Origin: Patescibacteria group bacterium
Lineage (GTDB): Bacteria > Patescibacteriota > Patescibacteriia > Patescibacteriales > UBA12465
DNA: 64,000 nucleotides
Assembly: GCA_050949505.1 (NCBI GenBank)
Contig: JBMNFV010000001.1
Location: 286,284-350,283 of the forward strand
Direction of reading: 5' to 3'
Below, piece after piece: positions 6,284 to 14,956 of this stretch. The first letter of the stretch is position 1. Each line of letters begins with the position of its first letter. A program made the position numbers and the translations under genes. The notes beneath the pieces are model-generated. The model was not told where the DNA came from, searched no databases, and was given only the letters and a program-made list of their open reading frames with translations.

Positions 6284-6952
6284 ATGGAAAAAATTATTAA
6301 TTTTCAGGCAGGAAGTGGTAAAAGTTTTATGTATTCATTGAATCAGTTGATTAGTATGAAGCAGGCTGGCTTTAATTCCATTTCCTATGTGAGAATAGGG
6401 GAAGAACTGCACTCTACTGATATGAGTGGACCAGATTTGGTGAGGAGTGCGAAGTATGCTTTGATTAACTCCCATTCAGAAATGGGGATATTCTTAGACC
6501 TCAGATTAGTGGGGGGCAAGAAGGAAGTGGATAGAATATTAAAAAAATATTTTGCTCCGGATATGTTGTCAGTTTCTTCGTTATGCAGTGTAGAGACGGT
6601 GCGATATATTCGTCGTCTACTACCAATGACCAAATTAGTAATGGTTGGCATGTTGCCAGATATTACGGATCAGGAAAGCGTTTTACGCTTTGACCTGTTG
6701 CCGGAAGAGAGGATGCTGCTAGAGTACAAGGCCTTTAAAAGGCTTTATGCTCAAGAGAAAGAAGTTAATCCCGAACCATTTGACTTGATCATGTGTTCTA
6801 GTCGGCAGGCTAGATACCTGCAAGACAACATTGACTCTTGTGAGTTGATGGTGGTGGGAAGGACTCCAGAAAATAACAACTCTGGTTATCAGCTGATAAC
6901 CATGGGGCAGTTGATAGAGATACACAAATCAAAAACGGGAGTTTTAGTTTAA
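6284..6952 (+). CDS. hypothetical protein
   Basis: 222-aa ORF with its own promoter and a downstream terminator (AAAGCGTTA-gtaa-TAACGCTTT followed by a T run at about 6969-6995). No family assigned with confidence. Confidence 0.5.
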   Translation: MEKIINFQAGSGKSFMYSLNQLISMKQAGFNSISYVRIGEELHSTDMSGPDLVRSAKYALINSHSEMGIFLDLRLVGGKKEVDRILKKYFAPDMLSVSSLCSVETVRYIRRLLPMTKLVMVGMLPDITDQESVLRFDLLPEERMLLEYKAFKRLYAQEKEVNPEPFDLIMCSSRQARYLQDNIDSCELMVVGRTPENNNSGYQLITMGQLIEIHKSKTGVLV

Positions 6953-7023
6953 CTCCTAGTATAGTATAAAAGCGTTAGTAATAACGCTTTTTTTAATAGC
7001 TCTAGTTATGGTACAATAAGATT

Positions 7024-7557
7024 ATGACTTGGCAATATTTAAAGTTTATTTTAGTTGCTCCGGGAATAGTGGTTCATGAGTTAGCGCACGTCTTTTTTTG
7101 TTTATTATTTAGAGTGAGGATTCATCGGATTAGCTTGTTGCGTTATGACAAGGTAGCCGGCTTTGTTATTCATGATGAGCCAAGACGATTCTTTCCCGCT
7201 TTATTTATCTCTCTAGGGCCATTGATTATCAATTCACTGCTAGCTATCTGGCTATTTTCTTTAATTAGCCAACCCTATTCAGCCCTAAGTATATTATTCT
7301 TGTGGTTAGGAATAGTCTTGGGACTGCAAGCGATTCCGTCTACGGGTGATGCTAGGGCTTTGTTTAATAATGCTAAGCATAATATCCTGCGTAATCCCTT
7401 AGTTATTTTGTTTTTTCCAGTGGTCCTAGTTATTTATTTGCTAAACATTCTCAAGCAGGTTTATATTCACTTCATCTACGTAATCTTTTTATTAGCCCTA
7501 TCACCTTACTTTAATCAAGCTTTAGAATGGCTAGAAACGCTTATTAAAGCTAATTAA
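7024..7557 (+). CDS. membrane protein with an HExxH motif (DUF3267-like putative zincin peptidase)
   Basis: 177 aa; VHELAHVFF sits near the N-terminus, followed by several TM helices. This architecture is typical of DUF3267. Confidence 0.6.
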   Translation: MTWQYLKFILVAPGIVVHELAHVFFCLLFRVRIHRISLLRYDKVAGFVIHDEPRRFFPALFISLGPLIINSLLAIWLFSLISQPYSALSILFLWLGIVLGLQAIPSTGDARALFNNAKHNILRNPLVILFFPVVLVIYLLNILKQVYIHFIYVIFLLALSPYFNQALEWLETLIKAN

Positions 7558-7561
7558 TTTT

Positions 7562-7590
7562 TTGACAATTTGCTTCAAGTTTATTATAGT
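7562..7590 (+). promoter_or_regulatory. sigma70-type promoter for tRNA-Ser(UGA): TTGACA-N17-TATAGT
   Basis: TTGACA at 7562-7567, a 17-nt spacer, TATAGT at 7585-7590, 14 nt before the tRNA. Confidence 0.55.
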
Positions 7591-9263
7591 AATAGCAATT
7601 TATTGGAGAGATGCCAGAGTGGTTGAATGGAACAGTCTTGAAAACTGTCGTTGGTGCAAGCCAACCGTGGGTTCGAATCCCACTCTCTCCGCCAATTTAC
7701 AATTTCAGAGTTTTCGGAAGTTTTACGCACCTGCGGTGCGGTCGCCTCGCCCGCAGGCGAGGCTGAAAGGGCTGATTTTGCAACGATTTGCCACGCTCCG
7801 CGTGGCGAAAAAGAAATGTTTTGGTTTTGGATTTGGAAGTTCGAACCAATCTTTTTTAGAAAATCCCGAATCCCTTCGGGATTTTCTTTTAAAGCGATAA
7901 TTTTGGCTTGTTTACTGTCATTTATAAACTTGTCGGCGAGTTCGAACCGATTATTGCTTTTTTGTTCAAAAGACTTCAATTTGTCTTTCAAAACTTGTTT
8001 TTGATTGATGAGAACATTTTTCGCTTTTTGGTATTCTTTGATATTCAAGACACTTTCCAAATAAGCGGTCATTAGTTTTTCCAACTTCTCATCAAGTTTT
8101 GAAAGTTCCTTTTCCGTCTTTTGCACAAAAAAGTCTGATGATGTGTCTGATTGGATTTTTTCTTTTTTCAATTCCTTGATCATCCAATCAGCGCAATCAT
8201 CAGGCAAAGAAACTTTTTGAAGTTCCTCACTAATTTGAGATGAAATTTTTTCTTCTCTCGTAAATACCTTTTGCGTGCATTTGTGATGTGGATTTTTCTT
8301 GGTGCAATAGTAGTAAATATATTCTTTCCCACTTTTCTTGATTTTCTTATCTGCCGTTATTGTAAATCCACATTCACCGCACTTGAAAAATCCACGATAA
8401 AGAAAAAATTTCATCTTTTCCACTTTCTGCGGTTTAGATTTTCTTTTCATCACTTCCTGAACTTCGTCAAAAAGCTTCTTTGAAATAATCGGTTTATGCT
8501 TTCCTTCGTAAAATTCACCGCCATAGCGAATAAGTCCATGATAGAAAGGATTTTGCAAAAGGTATTGATAATTTGAAACGGAAAGCATTTTACCTTTCTT
8601 GCCGACAAGTCCCAAGCCGTTGATAATCTTTCGGAGATTTTTCAAAGTATAATTTCCAGTGGCGTATGCCTCAAATGCCTTTTTGATAAATGGCGATTTT
8701 TCTTTATCAACATAAATTAGTTTTGTTTCTTTATTATTCAAATATCCCAAAGGAGCCATTTGAGGCCATAAGCCATTTTTCAATTTTTGCCGATGTCCTC
8801 TCTTGATATTCTCCGAAAGATTATCAACATAATATTTTGACTGTCCGAAAGCTATGGAGAGCATAAATTTGCCTTGCGGAGTGGGATCAAACCAGAAAGT
8901 TGGGAATTTTAGCTCTTGAATAACCCCAGTATCTACGAGATAGATAATTTGTCCGCCGTCAACGCTGTTTCTTGCCAGTCTATCGGGGTGCCAAGCTAAA
9001 ATTCCCACAGCTTCGCCCGCTTCAAGTTTTTTCAACATTTCGGCAAAGAGAGGGCGACCAGGTTTCTTGGCGGTTTGTTTTTCCACAATAGTATCAACAA
9101 TTTCCAAATTTTCCTTTTTCGCTAATTCTTTCAATTCAGAAATCTGGTCGCCAATACTCCGCACCTGTCGATCTTCCGAATCAGTAGATTTGCGGGCGTA
9201 GATGAAAAAATTTCTGTTTTGGTTTGCCGTAGCAGAGCGGAGGCAAGCGGAAACGCACCTCAT
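7584..9263 (-). CDS. large serine recombinase (resolvase/invertase catalytic domain, recombinase domain, zinc ribbon, coiled coil)
   Basis: The catalytic region reads IYARKSTDSEDRQVRSIGDQ and is followed by AWHPDRLARN. The zinc ribbon reads CGECGFTITADKK...YYYCTKKNPHHKC, followed by a long coiled-coil tail. The last 37 codons are antisense to tRNA-Ser and probably reflect read-through across the att junction (see findings). Confidence 0.85.
   Translation of the reverse strand: MRCVSACLRSATANQNRNFFIYARKSTDSEDRQVRSIGDQISELKELAKKENLEIVDTIVEKQTAKKPGRPLFAEMLKKLEAGEAVGILAWHPDRLARNSVDGGQIIYLVDTGVIQELKFPTFWFDPTPQGKFMLSIAFGQSKYYVDNLSENIKRGHRQKLKNGLWPQMAPLGYLNNKETKLIYVDKEKSPFIKKAFEAYATGNYTLKNLRKIINGLGLVGKKGKMLSVSNYQYLLQNPFYHGLIRYGGEFYEGKHKPIISKKLFDEVQEVMKRKSKPQKVEKMKFFLYRGFFKCGECGFTITADKKIKKSGKEYIYYYCTKKNPHHKCTQKVFTREEKISSQISEELQKVSLPDDCADWMIKELKKEKIQSDTSSDFFVQKTEKELSKLDEKLEKLMTAYLESVLNIKEYQKAKNVLINQKQVLKDKLKSFEQKSNNRFELADKFINDSKQAKIIALKENPEGIRDFLKKIGSNFQIQNQNISFSPRGAWQIVAKSALSASPAGEATAPQVRKTSENSEIVNWRREWDSNPRLACTNDSFQDCSIQPLWHLSNKLLLL
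7605..7694 (+). tRNA. tRNA-Ser (anticodon UGA), long variable arm, CCA encoded; predicted integration target of the adjacent element
   Basis: Acceptor GGAGAGA/TCTCTCC, anticodon arm ACAGT-CTTGAAA-ACTGT, variable arm TGGTGCAAGCCAACC, T arm GTGGGTTCGAATCCCAC, 3' GCCA. Confidence 0.9.
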
Positions 9264-9447
9264 TATTCTGGATTTTGTTCAAAAAAAGTTAGAATTTCAA
9301 CCAAAAGGTACCGCCAAATGTAACTTCCGCTTCCGAAAGGAAATCGGGCATTGGGGTAATGGCGATTATGAAGTGAAGCTCGAAAAGGAAGAAGAAATTG
9401 AGCAAGTTTTTGAGCTTATTAAGCAAAGTTATACCTACAACAAATAA
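9202..9447 (+). pseudogene. DUF5655-like C-terminal remnant
   Basis: The tail FVQKKLEFQPKG...IGHWGNGDYEVKLEKEEEIEQVFELIKQSY matches, from memory, the GHWGNGDYE...LIKQSY end of DUF5655 domains. Only about 60 aa of the domain is present. The only upstream ATG lies antisense within the recombinase start. Confidence 0.45.
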
Positions 9448-9449
9448 CT

Positions 9450-10715
9450 ATGGCGAGCAAATCATTAAATAAAAATCTTCATAAGGCGAGCAAAGCAAAG
9501 AATGATGAATTCTATACACAGCTTGGCGATATTGCCAACGAACTCAAACATTACCGTGAACAACTACGCGGCAAGGTTATTTTTTGTAATTGCGATGATC
9601 CGTTTGAGAGTAACTTTTTCAAATATTTTGCTGCTAATTTCAATACGCTCGGCCTTAAAAAGCTTATTTCCACCAGTTTTAGTGGCTCGCCAATCGTGGG
9701 ACAACAAATGCTCCCCGGCTTGATGGAGGGTTTGAAAAAAGCAGAAAAGAAAGAGCCGTATGTGGTGGAAATCAACGAAGTACCGGATATGAACAAAGAC
9801 GGGGCGATAAGTATGGACGACGTTGAGCATTTGCTAAAGCACGATAAAAATGTTTCTACACCACTTAAAGACGGCGATTTTCGTAGTGAGGAATGCGTAG
9901 AACTTCTTAAACAAGCCGATATTGTCATTACCAATCCACCATTCAGTCTTTTTCGTGAATTTGTGGCGCAACTTGTGGAGCATAACAAAAAATTTCTTAT
10001 TATCGGAAGCAAAAATGCCATCACCTATAAAGATATTTTCAAATTGATTAAAGAAAATAAGCTGTGGCTCGGATATGGTTTTGCTGGAGGAAATGCTTAT
10101 TTCAAAATCCCACCAGAGAAGGCGCGCGAATTTGCATCCGGCGTATACGACCCGAATACTGGTCTTGTAAAGTTTCGCAATGTCGGTTGGTACACAAATC
10201 TTTATGTAGATAGGTCTGAAAACCCGCTTACGCCATACCTCACTTATGAGCAAGGCCGCAAGAAAGGACTTTATCCAAAATACGATAATTACGACGCTAT
10301 TGAAGTATCGAAATTAGCTGAAATCCCCACTGATTATGATGGCGTTATGGGGGTTCCGATAACCTTTTTGGATTATTGGACTCCTGATAGCAGCATAGAA
10401 ATAGTCAAATTCAGAAAAGGTGATGACGACAAAGACCTAGCGTTTACGAGAGAGAGAGAGAGTACAACCGTACTTCAGAATACTCATTCGCTATCCTCGG
10501 ACAAACAGGAGTCATTGAACCAGATGGAATCTGTATCGAATACAAAGCGGGCCGACCGTACATCAATGGACAAAGGAAGTATGCGAGATTATTCATCAAA
10601 CAAGTTTGAAATCCTGGGTATCGCAAACTCGGCACGATGGATAGGTTACGAACTGTATACGATTATAGACGGGCGAAAAATTTACAACAGGATTATAATT
10701 AAACGAAGGCAATAA
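9450..10715 (+). CDS. N6-adenine DNA methyltransferase, EcoRI-methylase-like family (PF13651-type)
   Basis: N-terminal KNDEFYT motif, catalytic ITNPPFS (NPPF) and GVMGVPITFLD. The C-terminal region contains an (AG)7 tract and out-of-frame alternative tails (see findings). Confidence 0.85.
   Translation: MASKSLNKNLHKASKAKNDEFYTQLGDIANELKHYREQLRGKVIFCNCDDPFESNFFKYFAANFNTLGLKKLISTSFSGSPIVGQQMLPGLMEGLKKAEKKEPYVVEINEVPDMNKDGAISMDDVEHLLKHDKNVSTPLKDGDFRSEECVELLKQADIVITNPPFSLFREFVAQLVEHNKKFLIIGSKNAITYKDIFKLIKENKLWLGYGFAGGNAYFKIPPEKAREFASGVYDPNTGLVKFRNVGWYTNLYVDRSENPLTPYLTYEQGRKKGLYPKYDNYDAIEVSKLAEIPTDYDGVMGVPITFLDYWTPDSSIEIVKFRKGDDDKDLAFTRERESTTVLQNTHSLSSDKQESLNQMESVSNTKRADRTSMDKGSMRDYSSNKFEILGIANSARWIGYELYTIIDGRKIYNRIIIKRRQ
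10448..10462 (+). repeat. dinucleotide simple-sequence repeat, (GA)7G / (AG)7, inside the methyltransferase coding region
   Basis: GAGAGAGAGAGAGAG read directly at 10448-10462, encoding RERE in the current frame. Confidence 0.95.
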
Positions 10716-10717
10716 AT

Positions 10718-11815
10718 ATGAAAATAGAGCTAAAAAACATAAAAATACGGGATGTGGTGAACGGCTACAAAGACAGTGGCGAGAGTGGCGTGGTCGGTTA
10801 TGGTGGCAAACTCAATATTCGTCCGGCGTTCCAGCGCGAGTTTATTTATGGGCAGAAAGAGCGCGACGCTGTTATACGAACAGTACGATCAGGCTTTCCG
10901 CTCAATACCATGTATTGGTCGGATGATGGAGATGGAAATTTTGAACTTATGGACGGACAACAACGCACAATTTCAATTTGCCAATACGTTACTGAGATTA
11001 TCCCCATTAAGTTTGATGATGGCTATGAACTCGCTTTCAATAATTTGACCGCTGACCAACAGCAGAAAATTTTAGACTACGAACTATCAATTTACATTTG
11101 CGAGGGTACGGAAAGCGAAAAACTCGCGTGGTTTCGGACGATCAATATTGCGGGCAAGCCTTTAACCGATCAGGAACTTCTGAACGCCATGCACACGGGT
11201 CCGTGGCTTGCCGACGCGAAGCGTTGGTTTAGCAAAACCGGCGGGCCAGCATATCAAATTGGCGAGAATTACATAAACGGCTCGCCGATTCGGCAGGACT
11301 ATTTGGAAAAAGCGCTTGACTGGATTTCAGGAGGCAAAATTGAGAATTACATGAGCCTCCATCAGCAAGACGCTGACGCGCAGGAACTATGGCAATACTT
11401 CCAAGCGGTTATAGCGTGGGTGGAGAGAGTATTTCCTGAATATCGCAAGATTATGAAAGGTTTGGAGTGGGGGCGATTTTATAACGAGCACAAAGACGAC
11501 AAACTGAACGCGGCGAGCCTAGAAAGGCGGATTGCAGAATTGATTGCCGATGACGAGGTGGACAGCAAGAAAGGCATTTACGAATATCTGCTAACGGGCA
11601 ACGAAAAGACGCTCAATCTGAGAGTATTTGATGAAAAGACAAAAGTTGCGCAGTACGAAAAACAGAAAGGAATTTGCCCGATATGCAAAAAACATTTCGC
11701 AATTGACGAAATGGAAGCCGATCATATTGTGCCGTGGCACTCTGGCGGGAAAACAATTGAAAAAAATTGCCAAATGTTGTGCAAGCCAGATAACAGGACT
11801 AAATCTGGGAAATAA
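10718..11815 (+). CDS. DUF262 (ParB/Srx-fold, GmrSD N-terminal-like) domain protein with a C-terminal HNH nuclease domain
   Basis: NIRPAFQREFIY and the MDGQQRT (DGQQR) signature of DUF262. The C-terminal region CPICKKHF...ADHIVPWHSGGKT...NCQMLCKPDNRTK is an HNH motif. Confidence 0.85.
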   Translation: MKIELKNIKIRDVVNGYKDSGESGVVGYGGKLNIRPAFQREFIYGQKERDAVIRTVRSGFPLNTMYWSDDGDGNFELMDGQQRTISICQYVTEIIPIKFDDGYELAFNNLTADQQQKILDYELSIYICEGTESEKLAWFRTINIAGKPLTDQELLNAMHTGPWLADAKRWFSKTGGPAYQIGENYINGSPIRQDYLEKALDWISGGKIENYMSLHQQDADAQELWQYFQAVIAWVERVFPEYRKIMKGLEWGRFYNEHKDDKLNAASLERRIAELIADDEVDSKKGIYEYLLTGNEKTLNLRVFDEKTKVAQYEKQKGICPICKKHFAIDEMEADHIVPWHSGGKTIEKNCQMLCKPDNRTKSGK

Positions 11816-11818
11816 ATT

Positions 11819-13102
11819 ATGAAAAAACCTATTCACTATACAAAACTCATAGTAAATCCGGAGAACTATCGCTTTGATCCAGTAGAGAATCAAGAAGAAG
11901 CGATTGATTTAATGCTTGAAGAAAAAGGGTCAGAAATTGTCAATCTTGCAAAGCATATTTTAGAACACGGGCTAGACGAGGCTAAAGATTTCAGAGTTTT
12001 AGAGGTGAAATCAGGAAAGTACCTTGTGCTGGACGGCAATAGACGAACAACGGCAATTAAATGTTTACATGATCAATCTTTTATAAAAGATGAGAAAATA
12101 AAAAAAGCATTTCAAAATCTAGCCAAAACAAAAAAAGTAGCACCAAAAAATATTCAATCCTTTGTCTACGCTGATGAAAAATCGGCAGCTAAATGGATTA
12201 AGTTAGATCATACTGGTAAAAATGAAGGCGTTGGTCAAGATTCATGGGGGTCTGCAGAAAAAGACAGATTCGCATATAAGTTTGAGGGTAAAATTTCTCC
12301 GGCAATGCAAGCTGTTTCAGTCATAGAGAAAGAATTAAACAAAAAAATCGATACGAAGAAATTAAAGGTATCTACAATCAATCGCATACTATCAAATCCA
12401 GAATCTCGGTCATACTTAGGAGTGAATGTTAGTGGTAGTAAATTGATTTTCACAGCAGCTAAAAAAGAGGCTTGCGCACGCTTGGATAAGTTGTTCGATA
12501 AAGTTATTCAAGACAATGTAACTGTCGCAAGTGTTTATCACACACCTCAAACAATTGAATTTATGAAAGAGCTTTTTGGAGATAAGCCAAAAGACTCAAC
12601 TAAACCAACTCTTCCATTTCACGAAAACGAAGACGTTAAAACTAAAGAAGAAAAGCAAAGAAAAACACAAAGAGAGAAAGCTAAGCAGCAAAAATTCTTC
12701 GGGAAAGATTTGTTCTTAAAAAAAGGAGACACGAATAATATTTACATGGATATATTAGATTTGCATGGTTTTTATGTAAGTAATACTGCTAAGCTTTCCA
12801 AAAATTTTCCCGCAATGATTAGAATGTCTTTGCGATTGCTTGTTGAATCTGCAACGCCTGAAAAGAAAAAAATTGCTGATTATGTGAATAGTAATTTTGT
12901 TGAAGCGAAAGAGGCTTTGACCACGGATCAAAAGACAACATTAGCAAACAACAGTATAAATAATGCAGGAAATTTAATTCAGTTATTACAATCTGGGGCG
13001 CACAACTACGCGAATTCTGCTAATTTTGAACAAACAGTCGCTATGTCAATTATCATAGGAGCGATGTTAGACATAACACACGCAAAACACAATGAAAAGT
13101 AA
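11819..13102 (+). CDS. ParB/sulfiredoxin-like N-terminal domain protein with an uncharacterised helical C-terminal domain
   Basis: NPENYRFDP...LVLDGNRRTTAIKCL resembles the ParB N-terminal DGxRR motif. It is followed by a lysine-rich linker and a C-terminal domain of about 130 aa of unknown family. Confidence 0.7.
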   Translation: MKKPIHYTKLIVNPENYRFDPVENQEEAIDLMLEEKGSEIVNLAKHILEHGLDEAKDFRVLEVKSGKYLVLDGNRRTTAIKCLHDQSFIKDEKIKKAFQNLAKTKKVAPKNIQSFVYADEKSAAKWIKLDHTGKNEGVGQDSWGSAEKDRFAYKFEGKISPAMQAVSVIEKELNKKIDTKKLKVSTINRILSNPESRSYLGVNVSGSKLIFTAAKKEACARLDKLFDKVIQDNVTVASVYHTPQTIEFMKELFGDKPKDSTKPTLPFHENEDVKTKEEKQRKTQREKAKQQKFFGKDLFLKKGDTNNIYMDILDLHGFYVSNTAKLSKNFPAMIRMSLRLLVESATPEKKKIADYVNSNFVEAKEALTTDQKTTLANNSINNAGNLIQLLQSGAHNYANSANFEQTVAMSIIIGAMLDITHAKHNEK

Positions 13103-13958
13103 AGCTGACAAAAAAATATCTGGTTTTTCGAGTCCGCTTCGTTATCCAGGCGGGAAAACACGTCTTGCCAACAAACTACTTGAGGCAATAGAGAAAAACT
13201 GCAACCAAAAAGAAAAGGTGATTTTGGTTGAGCCGTATGCCGGTGGAGCGGGCGCTTCCCTTGCTTTGCTTTTTGCAAAAAAAGTTGAAAAAATTGTTAT
13301 CAACGATCTTGATAAGGCAATTTTCACATTCTGGAAAATAGCGGTTTCCGATACTGACTATTTAATCAATAAAATACGGCGAACCGATATAACTATAGAG
13401 GAATGGAGAAAGCAAAAAGCAATTTATGCTTCGACAAAAAGCAAGCGCAAACTTGCATTTGCCACTTTATTTTTAAATAGAACAAATCGCTCCGGAATAA
13501 TGAATGGCGGGCCGATTGGCGGAACTGATCAATCCGGAACATGGAAAGTAAGTGCACGCTTTACCAAACAAACTATTATTGATCGGCTTGAAAAAATTAA
13601 AGAATTTCATAATAAAATTGAAGTGTACAATCTGGACGGCATAGAATTGTTAAAAAAGCTGGAAGAACGAAAAAACCGAAGCCAATATTTTATATTTCTT
13701 GACCCACCGTATTTTCAAAAAGGGCAATCTCTATACTTGAACCATTACAGCAACAAAGATCACGAAAATCTATCAGAATTTTTGGAAAAATCATCATTCA
13801 AGAAGTGGATTATGACTTACGATGACGTTCCATATATTAAAAACTTATACGCAACAATGCGGACAAAAGGATTTGCTATTCAACACAATGCGTATGAGTC
13901 AAAAGTGGGCAGAGAGGTAATGATCTTTCCAAAAGAGTTTATTCCAGTGAATCTTTAA
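13092..13958 (+). CDS. Dam-family (D12 class) N6-adenine DNA methyltransferase
   Basis: LRYPGGKTRL, EPYAGGAG (SAM-binding) and the catalytic DPPY motif. The start overlaps the upstream gene by 11 nt (ATGAAAAGTAA). Confidence 0.9.
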   Translation: MKSKADKKISGFSSPLRYPGGKTRLANKLLEAIEKNCNQKEKVILVEPYAGGAGASLALLFAKKVEKIVINDLDKAIFTFWKIAVSDTDYLINKIRRTDITIEEWRKQKAIYASTKSKRKLAFATLFLNRTNRSGIMNGGPIGGTDQSGTWKVSARFTKQTIIDRLEKIKEFHNKIEVYNLDGIELLKKLEERKNRSQYFIFLDPPYFQKGQSLYLNHYSNKDHENLSEFLEKSSFKKWIMTYDDVPYIKNLYATMRTKGFAIQHNAYESKVGREVMIFPKEFIPVNL

Positions 13959-14129
13959 GGGAGTTCCGCTTGCGCGCGCAGAGAGTATCACCACGCGCTC
14001 CGCGCGTACGATTTGGCTCAGAGCCACCACGCACGCGGAGCGTGCGCAGATCAATCGCTTCGCGATTGGAAAAAGGTTCGCGCAAAGGTTAATATTTCAC
14101 CGCCACATTGTGTTAGCACGAAATGGTTT

Positions 14130-14159
14130 AAAACAGAGCTTATTTAAGGCTCTGTTTTT
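14130..14159 (+). terminator. rho-independent terminator; likely the original tRNA-Ser terminator, displaced by the insertion
   Basis: AAAACAGAGC-ttatttaag-GCTCTGTTTT followed by T. Confidence 0.6.
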
Positions 14160-14266
14160 AGTATAATCTTTTTGAAATTATGTGTTAATAATCTTGACTA
14201 TCAATATCAATATACTTGACTTCGCTCTCTCTCAGTGCTAGGCTAATAGTAGTTAAGTGTAAAAAT

Positions 14267-14956
14267 ATGAGTCAAAAATTACATCAATTATTAAAAGATT
14301 TAAGAGAGCAGAAAAGCCTATCACAACAAGAAGTAGCTGAAAAATTAGGCATGTCTAGGCCTTCCTATATTTTAATTGAACAAGGGAAGAGGGGCTTAAC
14401 TTTATTAGAAGCTCAGATAATAACAAAAATGTTTGGTATTAGTTTAGGGGACCTGGAAATGGGAGTAGTGCCAGATATAGAAAAGTACAAAGAGATGATT
14501 CTTTCGTTTCTTAGATTTTTTAATATCAAAGGAGATGGCAAGGTTCCAAAAACTAAATTAGCTAAATTATTATATTTAGCAGATTTTTCTTATTACTATG
14601 CTAATTTTGAAAGTATGAGTGGAATGCAATACCGAAGACTTAAATATGGTCCAGTTTCAGATTTGTATTTTAGAGCCCTAGATGAGTTGGAGGAGGAAGG
14701 GAGAATAGAGCGAGACAACAGGAAGAGCGATGTAATATTAATAAGTGAAAATGAGGGCTCTAAAAAAGCATCATTAAAAAGATTACAAGAAAAAGAGGCA
14801 GGCCTCATTACTAAGATTGCCAAAAAATGGGAAGATAAAAAAACTAGAGAGATTGTTAACTTCACTCACAATCAATTACCCTATAAGGCCAGCTTGCCTG
14901 ATGAAACTATTTCTTACGAATTAATCATTCAAGAAGATCCGGGACATGTTTATTAA
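14267..14956 (+). CDS. XRE-family HTH fused to a Panacea/DUF4065 (SocA-like) antitoxin domain
   Basis: The HTH reads LSQQEVAEKLGMSRPSYILIEQGKRGLTLLEA. It is followed by KTKLAKLLYLADFSYYYANFESMSGMQYRRLKYGPVS, the DUF4065 core pattern. The ATG at 14267 is preferred over the TTG at 14216. Confidence 0.8.
   Translation: MSQKLHQLLKDLREQKSLSQQEVAEKLGMSRPSYILIEQGKRGLTLLEAQIITKMFGISLGDLEMGVVPDIEKYKEMILSFLRFFNIKGDGKVPKTKLAKLLYLADFSYYYANFESMSGMQYRRLKYGPVSDLYFRALDELEEEGRIERDNRKSDVILISENEGSKKASLKRLQEKEAGLITKIAKKWEDKKTREIVNFTHNQLPYKASLPDETISYELIIQEDPGHVY

Follow-up and report, generated by a model that had tools for sequence, protein, structure and literature searches.

We analysed a 64,000-nucleotide stretch of a Patescibacteria group bacterium genome (GenBank assembly GCA_050949505.1, contig JBMNFV010000001.1, positions 286,284 to 350,283; hereafter the window, to which all coordinates refer unless another locus is named), in which a large serine recombinase (LSR) gene at the edge of a genomic island reads straight into a transfer RNA (tRNA) gene. 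Comparison with related loci places attP, the attachment site of the mobile form, inside the 3' end of the recombinase gene in this LSR family. As integrated, the recombinase open reading frame (ORF) occupies 7584-9263 on the reverse strand (559 aa, with its ATG at 9263 and its stop at 7586-7584), and tRNA-Ser(UGA), which forms the B' half of the empty site attB, occupies 7605-7694 on the forward strand (ARAGORN; Rfam RF00005, 59 bits). The overlap of the two genes includes the island's attR core, CCGCCA (7689-7694), which comprises the last acceptor bases, the discriminator and the CCA of the tRNA and which, on the reverse strand, supplies the recombinase codons W-R. Including this pair, the last 36 codons of the ORF run antisense through the tRNA, and the protein ends in ...EIVNWR followed by REWDSNPRLACTNDSFQDCSIQPLWHLSNKLLLL and a stop, the read-through tail (REWDSNPR..., 7584-7688, reverse strand) contributing 34 codons plus the stop. 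An earlier note on this DNA had described the frame as crossing attR at the W-R codons and continuing antisense through the tRNA to a 559-aa product, and all of these sequence statements hold. Conservation in the read-through tail is no more than the tRNA sequence imposes.

By domain content and site geometry the protein is a large serine recombinase. Domains were assigned with Pfam, tRNA genes with ARAGORN and Rfam, and defence systems with PADLOC; Pfam finds a Resolvase domain (PF00239, residues 20-165, 2.7e-19), a Recombinase domain (PF07508, residues 188-274, 4.4e-15) and a zinc ribbon (Zn_ribbon_recom, PF13408, residues 288-348, 1.2e-10), and both the resolvase-type serine nucleophile motif IYARKSTDSEDRQ and four zinc ribbon cysteines (C290, C293, C315 and C324) are invariant across the family alignment. 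A low-confidence structure model (mean predicted local distance difference test score, pLDDT, of 46) predicts long helices at residues 350-447, a candidate coiled-coil region. An alternative genetic code in which TGA is read as sense was ruled out, since TGA ends 4 of 34 long ORFs and reading it as sense barely extends them. Upstream of the tRNA, a promoter-like TTGACA-17-TATAGT (7562-7590, 11/12 consensus match) is tRNA-Ser's own, in a scan that gave a number of promoter-like matches no more than about two standard deviations from the shuffle mean; the integrated recombinase gene faces this site head-on.

Same-species contigs from other samples were retrieved via the host protein left of tRNA-Ser. 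One of them, contig L088 (European Nucleotide Archive ERZ28615095) from another metagenome, carries an empty attB: it joins window positions 6804-7697 directly to 14097-14642 at 99.4% identity, with a joint that reads ...ctctctCCGCCAcattgtgttagc (in a longer stretch, ...ctctctCCGCCAcattgtg...). Because L088 joins both flanks directly, the inserted DNA can be delimited to 7695-14100/14105, or 6.4 kb, with the crossover within CCGCCA, and the attL core lies at 14100-14105, preceded by TCA at 14097-14099. The earlier note had predicted this core and both element ends from the repeated hexamer; a 6-bp repeat by itself is weak boundary evidence, and it is the empty site that proves the boundaries. 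The same contig rules out an element of only 1.6 kb for which the far end at 14100 would be wrong. Beyond attL, the B arm (14106-14160, forward strand) is the original tRNA trailer, a terminator-like hairpin (aaaacagagc...gctctgtttt) that is contiguous with the tRNA in the empty-site contig.

Window positions 7695-14105 are thus an integrated genomic island of the LSR in the 3' end of tRNA-Ser(UGA), carrying two defence systems. Its presence is polymorphic, with precise joints at the tRNA 3' end: L088 is empty, while the window, contig L085 (100% identical to the window over 14.5 kb) and three Logan contigs (L092-94, 100% identical over 9235-14344) are occupied. The tRNA-Ser is left whole after integration, with its CCA encoded, and on these comparisons integration at the tRNA 3' end is conservative. 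Identity among attL, attR and attB is confined to CCGCCA here and to GCGG at loci such as L016 and L022. The crossover falls within the bases CCGC(CA), which serve both as the end of the tRNA and as the recombinase codons W-R. We also noted a third allele at the same tRNA-Ser(UGA) in the same species (L086:10672-10932, GCA_025563055.1), where CCGCCA is followed by unrelated DNA with a terminator-like hairpin and a small helix-turn-helix (HTH)-like ORF, matching neither the island nor the empty-site trailer. A second tRNA-Ser, of anticodon GCU, lies 6.5 kb off at 1039-1132 with the same end (...TCTCTCCGCCA); it is unoccupied and is a potential free attB in the same genome, and the GCU isoacceptor is often targeted in relatives.

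This recombinase has thousands of relatives, of which we took the best 120, 60-96% identical and mostly from Patescibacteria, together with 80 loci from species-representative genomes, 71 of them uncut by contig ends. The earlier note had proposed that homologs be checked for an end near NWR; they do not end there, and in the best 120 the ORF always continues across the site. Conservation among these homologs extends as far as the core codons [WLM]-R, after which two kinds of continuation are seen. In 66 of the 120 the protein continues as R-x-x-D-S-N-P-R..., the tRNA T-arm read antisense, followed by unrelated sequence, while about 20 end in a conserved tail, [YC]LL[DV][KE]I[RL]T[FY]Fx[EQ]NP[DE], with 0-4 further residues before the stop, giving a native tail of 15-20 aa; the remainder are mostly cut by contig ends. 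The suggestion that the natural stop codon lies across attP is partly supported: the frame does cross attP, but its natural end is this conserved tail rather than NWR and a stop.

An antisense tRNA directly follows the ORF in 60 of the 71 uncut loci, comprising 52 Ser (all anticodons), 5 Gln, 2 Lys and 1 Ala, and the resulting tails range from 0 to more than 60 aa, their length being fixed by the first stop in each tRNA. Clades at about 60% identity target tRNA-Gln, tRNA-Lys or tRNA-Ala with matching, different cores and an unchanged tail motif. Integration through this site thus removes a conserved, apparently translated tail and fuses the ORF to tRNA antisense, 34 aa of it here. In individual clusters built at 90% identity, one and the same allele of the hypervariable linker is found joined to the native tail in some members and to a variety of tRNA tails in others; the recombinase thus changes states and tRNA genes within a short time. 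The family is also multi-copy at different tRNA genes in small genomes, such as OY969557.1 (L063, L067), MGKV01000021 (L017, L029), CAZMFO01 (L023, L027), JBAXUB01 (L062, L066) and CAYNPK01 (L003, L056). A few loci have DNA other than a tRNA gene attached to the ORF at the core (L006:1859-1900, with the tail ATSV and a stop; proteins P0005 and P0007), which suggests secondary integration sites. Viral contigs contributed one relative, at 60% identity, and the family is not typically phage-borne. In a literature search of incomplete coverage, we found no paper on this Patescibacteria recombinase family.

The conserved tail appears to serve as both DNA and protein. Aligning the B' and P' arms after the divergence point in 29 loci (7660-7688 and 9266-9310 in the window, respectively), we found that T[CT]GAA, the pentamer of the T-loop, begins at +13 in B', the tRNA side, and that a like pentamer begins at +18 in P', the tail side, each in 28 of 29 loci. 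For these two arms, cross-correlation peaks at a shift of +5 with 0.416 identity; 200 shuffles reached no more than 0.302 at any shift. For the Listeria (LI) integrase, the motif of the zinc ribbon domain (ZD) is published to lie 5 bp nearer the centre in attB than in attP (PMC3783163), and since the +5 shift agrees with it, P' mimics the tRNA T-loop at attP spacing. Tail codons 1-8, in which I/V-R-T is written ATC CGA ACT or GTT CGA ACT, are conserved even at third positions because of this T-loop-like DNA motif, and by this comparison they double as the P' half-site.

Beyond this motif the pattern is that of a protein. Over 46 non-independent sequences, tail codons 9-16 have a third-position entropy of 1.31, compared with 0.60 and 0.62 at positions 1 and 2, and F, N and P are invariant as residues while their third bases vary freely; single-base differences are synonymous and non-synonymous in a ratio of 1927:1438 in codons 9-16 and 860:1462 in codons 1-8. 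The motif F-x-x-N-P-[DEQN] is kept, with free third positions, across clades with different cores and different tRNAs. Upstream of the core, the P arm of attP/attR and a G+C-rich hairpin linker lie within the ORF (7695-7830, reverse strand; fold -46.9 kcal/mol, z = -4.5), corresponding to the inverted repeat IR-a of relatives. This linker spans 25-35 codons of perfect short hairpins (such as, within 7700-7830, CCACGCG-GAG-CGTGG, which encodes the conserved PRGAW, and GCCTCGCC-TGCG-GGCGAGGC) whose sequence turns over completely between clades while pairing and frame are kept, and it is open in essentially all family members that reach it. The pattern in codons 9-16, together with an ORF kept open through the linker, provides good though not conclusive evidence that the native tail is translated and selected as protein. 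In a terminator scan the linker hairpins have no T-run and are not canonical terminators; one possible role is to shield the tRNA and recombinase transcripts from one another.

The window's own island departs from its relatives in several respects. The earlier note had correctly identified the two CCGCCA cores at 7689-7694 and 14100-14105, and had missed a third at 9311-9316, in direct orientation with the first and 1,622 bp away from it. Adjoining this third core is an intact cognate P' arm (9263-9310, reverse strand; tblastn, alignment A1) comprising the native tail YLLVEILTFFEQNPE, identical in L002, L004 and L005, and TAA, the last A of which is also the A of the recombinase ATG (TAATG). 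The recombinase begins with an atypical N-terminal leader (MRCVSACLRSATANQNRNFF..., 9186-9263, reverse strand), which in a comparison of N-termini (alignment A1) replaces the family's MTNxNQT[KR]KFF; here the leader DNA continues into the gene body, whereas in relatives it follows the tail and is cut after TTTTTTCAT. In L001:1940-2070, L004:170-330 and L005:1-80, this post-tail leader resembles the 5' end of a recombinase gene, stops after TTTTTTCAT and is followed about 47 bp later by an inverted copy of itself; a second, divergent recombinase gene in L005 was ruled out, its leader being cut off as in L001 and L004.

On the other side of the third core lies an arm that we call y (9317-9447, forward strand), which resembles a truncated gene 3' end (...GHWGNGDYEVKLEKEEEIEQVFELIKQSYTYNK and a stop), is neither P-like nor B-like and has no Pfam match; its reading as the end of a DUF5655-type protein likewise finds no support in Pfam. 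This gene fragment is cut off exactly at the third core, which implies that older island DNA underwent an insertion or deletion there, at a secondary site. At the far end of the island, a G+C-rich hairpin module (13960-14050, reverse strand) has its homolog in the module found after the native tail of relatives (alignment A1, with L001 and L002), and the far-end P' arm (14051-14099, reverse strand) encodes a tail homolog of a different subtype (DIL..ARTxF), 1 nt out of register. This tail, EILTFARTFFQSRSD and a stop, is read from 14098 down to 14051 and was recognized by comparison with the tails of L048 (DILNVARTHFERNC), P0051 (DILKLARTYFGRNC) and P0025; an 11-bp deletion, considered for the same arm, was replaced by this 1-nt register shift. 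The extra T at 14099 accounts both for the TGA right after the core in the ORF frame and for the T-loop-like motif lying at +19 instead of +18.

These features bear on what excision would produce. The earlier note had observed that, with TCA at 14097-14099 preceding the far core, joining both ends gives TGG CGG TGA, and that the integrated and excised states must therefore encode different C-termini; both points follow from the joined ends. Whole-island excision, by recombination of 14100-14105 with 7689-7694, would give a protein of 525 aa ending in NWR. This form is a derived state, because homologs continue across attP into the conserved 15-20-aa tail. Recombination of 9311-9316 with 7689-7694 would instead yield a circle of 1,622 bp that bears a perfect cognate attP and encodes a 540-aa native-tail protein; the ORF (1575 + 45 + 3 = 1,623 nt) would span the whole circle with a one-base self-overlap. 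The window island is an atypical mosaic whose history needs at least two events at the same core.

In relatives the recombinase gene is typically bracketed by two attachment sites. At about 35 loci, an inverted copy of the final 114-185 nt of the gene, 92-100% identical to the original, lies 4-340 bp upstream of the start codon. Its end coincides with the core, beyond which come the native tail and its stop, making up a complete inverted attP (such as L004:452-700, L020:9743-9870, L023:9749-9876 and L067:9529-9710, among the related loci L003-L081). The repeats are mostly at least 97% identical within a locus and very different between loci; no inverted attP copy is present in this window. Where the contig includes the far end (L016, L022, L023, L027, L031, L067), inverted P' repeats of 123-349 bp flank the cargo, and the outer one borders host DNA. 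From the host arm inward, the integrated order is core, P', cargo, inverted P', core, inverted copy of P, gene, P, core and finally the tRNA. As a circle, such an element would carry two inverted attP separating a 1.8-kb recombinase arc from a 2-6-kb cargo arc.

Attachment to the tRNA takes two forms. At most loci, L004 among them, it is the complete gene that runs into the tRNA; in L089, by contrast, tRNA-Ser(GGA) is joined to the shortened inverted copy and the full gene retains its native tail. The upstream inverted attP of most relatives can thus, on the evidence of L089, allow integration to leave the native tail intact, and the two attachment states could reflect integration through one attP or the other, or a subsequent inversion. 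L001, L002, L083 and L084 are compatible with an L089-like state or with circles: both ends of L001 fall inside its two inverted repeats, such that a circle or an integrated form fits alike, and the contigs L083 and L084 break inside 100%-identical repeats. In L011:53-2044, a recombinase arc lies between complete tRNA-Ser genes, GCU (+) and GGA (-), each joined at the core; this could mean that both attP have recombined with two different attB, which would imply that the chromosome was rearranged, or that the repeat gave rise to a chimeric assembly.

The window's cargo consists of two defence systems. A type II restriction-modification pair (9450-11815, forward strand; PADLOC, Pfam) comprises MTase_II (EcoRI_methylase, 9450-10715, forward strand, PADLOC 1e-106) and REase_II (GmrSD_N/HNH, 10718-11815, forward strand, PADLOC 3e-138), and is followed by the two genes of PD-Lambda-5 (11819-13958, forward strand; PADLOC), namely PD-Lambda-5 A (11819-13102, forward strand, PADLOC 4e-72) and PD-Lambda-5 B, a D12-class methyltransferase (13092-13958, forward strand, PADLOC 7e-103). 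Cargo elsewhere in the family is likewise mostly restriction-modification or other defence, including restriction-modification and AriA/OLD-like genes in L001, L023, L027 and L031. The first host gene past the island (14216-14956) encodes an HTH and SocA/Panacea antitoxin-like protein.

Taken together, our proposed explanation is that attP lies in the ORF, that integration swaps the conserved tail for tRNA antisense, and that the integrated enzyme is thereby disarmed. We assign this explanation as a whole a probability of about 0.55. Its structural part is close to certain; its regulatory part, that the tail matters for activity, direction or stability and that the integrated copy is disarmed, we would put at somewhat short of even odds. 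Loss of the native tail would alter or lower recombinase activity or stability, such that the enzyme would be fully armed only while attP is intact. Convergent transcription from the tRNA promoter would probably reinforce the disarming and lower expression, and complementarity between the 3' end of the recombinase mRNA and an abundant tRNA would probably lower it further. In typical relatives, the second, inverted attP would allow integration, or a later flip of the 1.8-kb recombinase segment, with the native tail kept; both states, native tail kept and tRNA-antisense tail, do occur in nature. The earlier note had raised the idea that recombinase activity might be coupled to integration state, and coupling through tail exchange gains support from the apparent protein-level selection on the tail.

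Several observations weigh against this explanation. The integrated genes are mostly intact, with internal stops in only about 4 of 60, and a form without the native tail may well be active. The structure model of the native-tail form (P0002, built on an 18-sequence alignment, mean pLDDT 46) shows the tail as helical and unplaced and is too poor to reveal any docking of it. DNA binding alone accounts for the conservation of codons 1-8, and the protein-level signal comes from about 7 codons, in a set of 46 sequences that are not independent of one another. Alternatively, the tail could be selected as the end of a small upstream ORF made up of a gene 3' fragment and the tail (for example 117 aa in L004). 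In other serine integrases, C-terminal extensions have no known essential role. Finally, an exact-match scan of metagenome contigs returned zero matches to the predicted circle junction (the P arm joined to the far-end P'), an outcome that is not in itself evidence against the junction.

The overlap of attachment site and gene may instead be incidental, arising from compactness and from the binding of the recombinase beside its own gene, with both tails neutral, a possibility that we take seriously while considering it unlikely. Tails that are arbitrary in length and sequence in the integrated state (0 to more than 60 aa), a low-complexity, hypervariable linker before the core, nucleotide constraint on the P' half-site that suffices for tail codons 1-8, and integrated genes that mostly remain intact are all as neutrality would have it. 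Against neutrality, codons 9-16 lie beyond the T-loop-like motif, which marks the outer half-site, and yet keep F-x-x-N-P-[DEQN] with free third positions across clades, and the hairpin linker remains without stops in essentially all members despite full turnover of its sequence. We further considered whether the recombinase gene is an invertible cassette, its 1.8-kb segment flipping between attR and the inverted attP so as to toggle native and tRNA tails without excision, which would not exclude tail-dependent control. Such flipping could proceed by homologous recombination over the 114-185-bp repeats or through the recombinase itself, the arrangement having been lost in the window island, and we regard the cassette, by either route, as rather doubtful. 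It draws on inverted repeats that end exactly at the core at about 35 loci and are mostly at least 97% identical within each, on the existence of both orientations relative to the tRNA (L004 and others vs. L089) and on the L083 and L084 contigs that break inside identical repeats, but the two orientations have been seen only in different genomes and never for one element in one strain, integration through either attP of a circular form explains them equally well, and breaks are expected of an assembly at any repeat. In addition, known serine integrases do not permit recombination of attP with attR (PMC3783163), and the window itself lacks the inverted copy.

For this particular island, the recombinase might have entered on its own, as a 1,622-bp module (7689-9310) inserted at a site made up of y and the tRNA, with the 4.8-kb cargo and its out-of-register P' arm as an older, immobile remnant. 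The P' arm beside the third core (9310-9266) matches the closest relatives' cognate tail exactly, the far-end P' is of another subtype and 1 nt off in frame and spacing, the sole usable start codon is created at the tail-leader joint TAATG, and y is a truncated gene end of the kind that an insertion or deletion at a secondary site would leave. Yet none of the 80 related loci (0/80) contains a recombinase-only module, the exact-match scan of metagenome contigs gave zero matches to a y-core-tRNA joint (again not negative evidence in itself), the only empty site found lacks the entire 6.4 kb, and the promoter would have to sit within coding sequence, where the sole promoter-like match, inside the native tail, is weak (9/12); we consider this history improbable. 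An assembly artefact or a chance extension of the ORF can be dismissed for practical purposes: repeats of this recombinase family do break assemblies, but the same sequence is found in five independent assemblies and the same fusion of ORF and tRNA at dozens of loci in different genomes, and the arrangement is not an artefact of assembly.

In its domain set (Resolvase, Recombinase and zinc ribbon), in the short identity core shared by attP and attB, and in conservative integration beside the recombinase gene, the family matches known large serine recombinases such as phiC31, Bxb1, A118/LI, SPbeta SprA and TnpX, and the LI integrase likewise has a shared half-site motif 5 bp further out in attP than in attB (PMC3783163). 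Unlike these systems, it has attP inside the ORF with a conserved peptide encoded across it, targets tRNA 3' ends with a P' arm that mimics the T-loop, in most elements carries a second, inverted attP, and resides in Patescibacteria. No candidate gene for a directionality factor was evident in the small elements examined, among which no systematic search for one was made.

Attachment sites within genes are already known for the integrase of myxophage Mx8 and for BPs-type repressors, both of which are tyrosine recombinase systems. Mx8 targets a tRNA gene, and the part of its integrase that is replaced is reportedly large. [quoted passage not shown] The window system resembles this self-modifying integrase only in having its attP core inside the integrase ORF, where integration changes the C-terminus, and is not a member of that type: Mx8 Int is a tyrosine recombinase of a 49-kb phage without twin attP, while the window recombinase has serine recombinase domains only. 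In mycobacteriophage BPs and relatives, attP lies inside a regulatory gene whose free and integrated products differ in C-terminus and in stability or activity; the gene encodes the repressor, the lost part is an ssrA-like degradation tag and the integrase is a tyrosine recombinase, as described in PMC4557955. The tail of the window family (...FFxxNPD) is not ssrA-like.

Two further classes of element offer partial parallels. SSV1-type archaeal integrases have attP within the int gene, and their integration into a tRNA gene disrupts int; these are tyrosine recombinases of archaeal hosts, and int is split into two distant fragments rather than exchanging a short tail. The twin attP of the relatives recall yeast 2-micron FLP/FRT and invertible segments, in which a recombinase likewise lies on a segment bounded by site-bearing inverted repeats with two orientation isomers. 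Here, however, the sites are the attP and attR of an integrase rather than two identical sites, and the isomers are known from different genomes; the inverted flanking sites of a site-specific inversion switch are likewise present in relatives and not in the window. Within the incomplete coverage of our literature search, we found no report of a serine integrase with an attP-spanning conserved peptide, a T-loop-mimicking P' arm or twin inverted attP.

Serine integrases are key tools of genome engineering, and the control of their direction is an active structural question. The family described here unites three unusual traits, namely a C-terminus exchanged by its own reaction, an attP that mimics the T-loop with a 5-bp offset, and two inverted attP bracketing the gene, and it thereby offers a directly testable case of product-dependent self-regulation. 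More speculatively, and we hold the following to be possible rather than probable, it may represent a self-editing serine integrase, in which the peptide spanning attP would set activity or direction, each recombination would rewrite the enzyme that performed it, and the twin attP would pick or flip between armed and disarmed forms, the whole acting as the main shuttle of defence islands among Patescibacteria tRNA genes. If true, such an enzyme would control its direction without a separate directionality factor. The family is also a very common means by which restriction and other defence genes are carried in small Patescibacteria genomes, and one that apparently has not been described.

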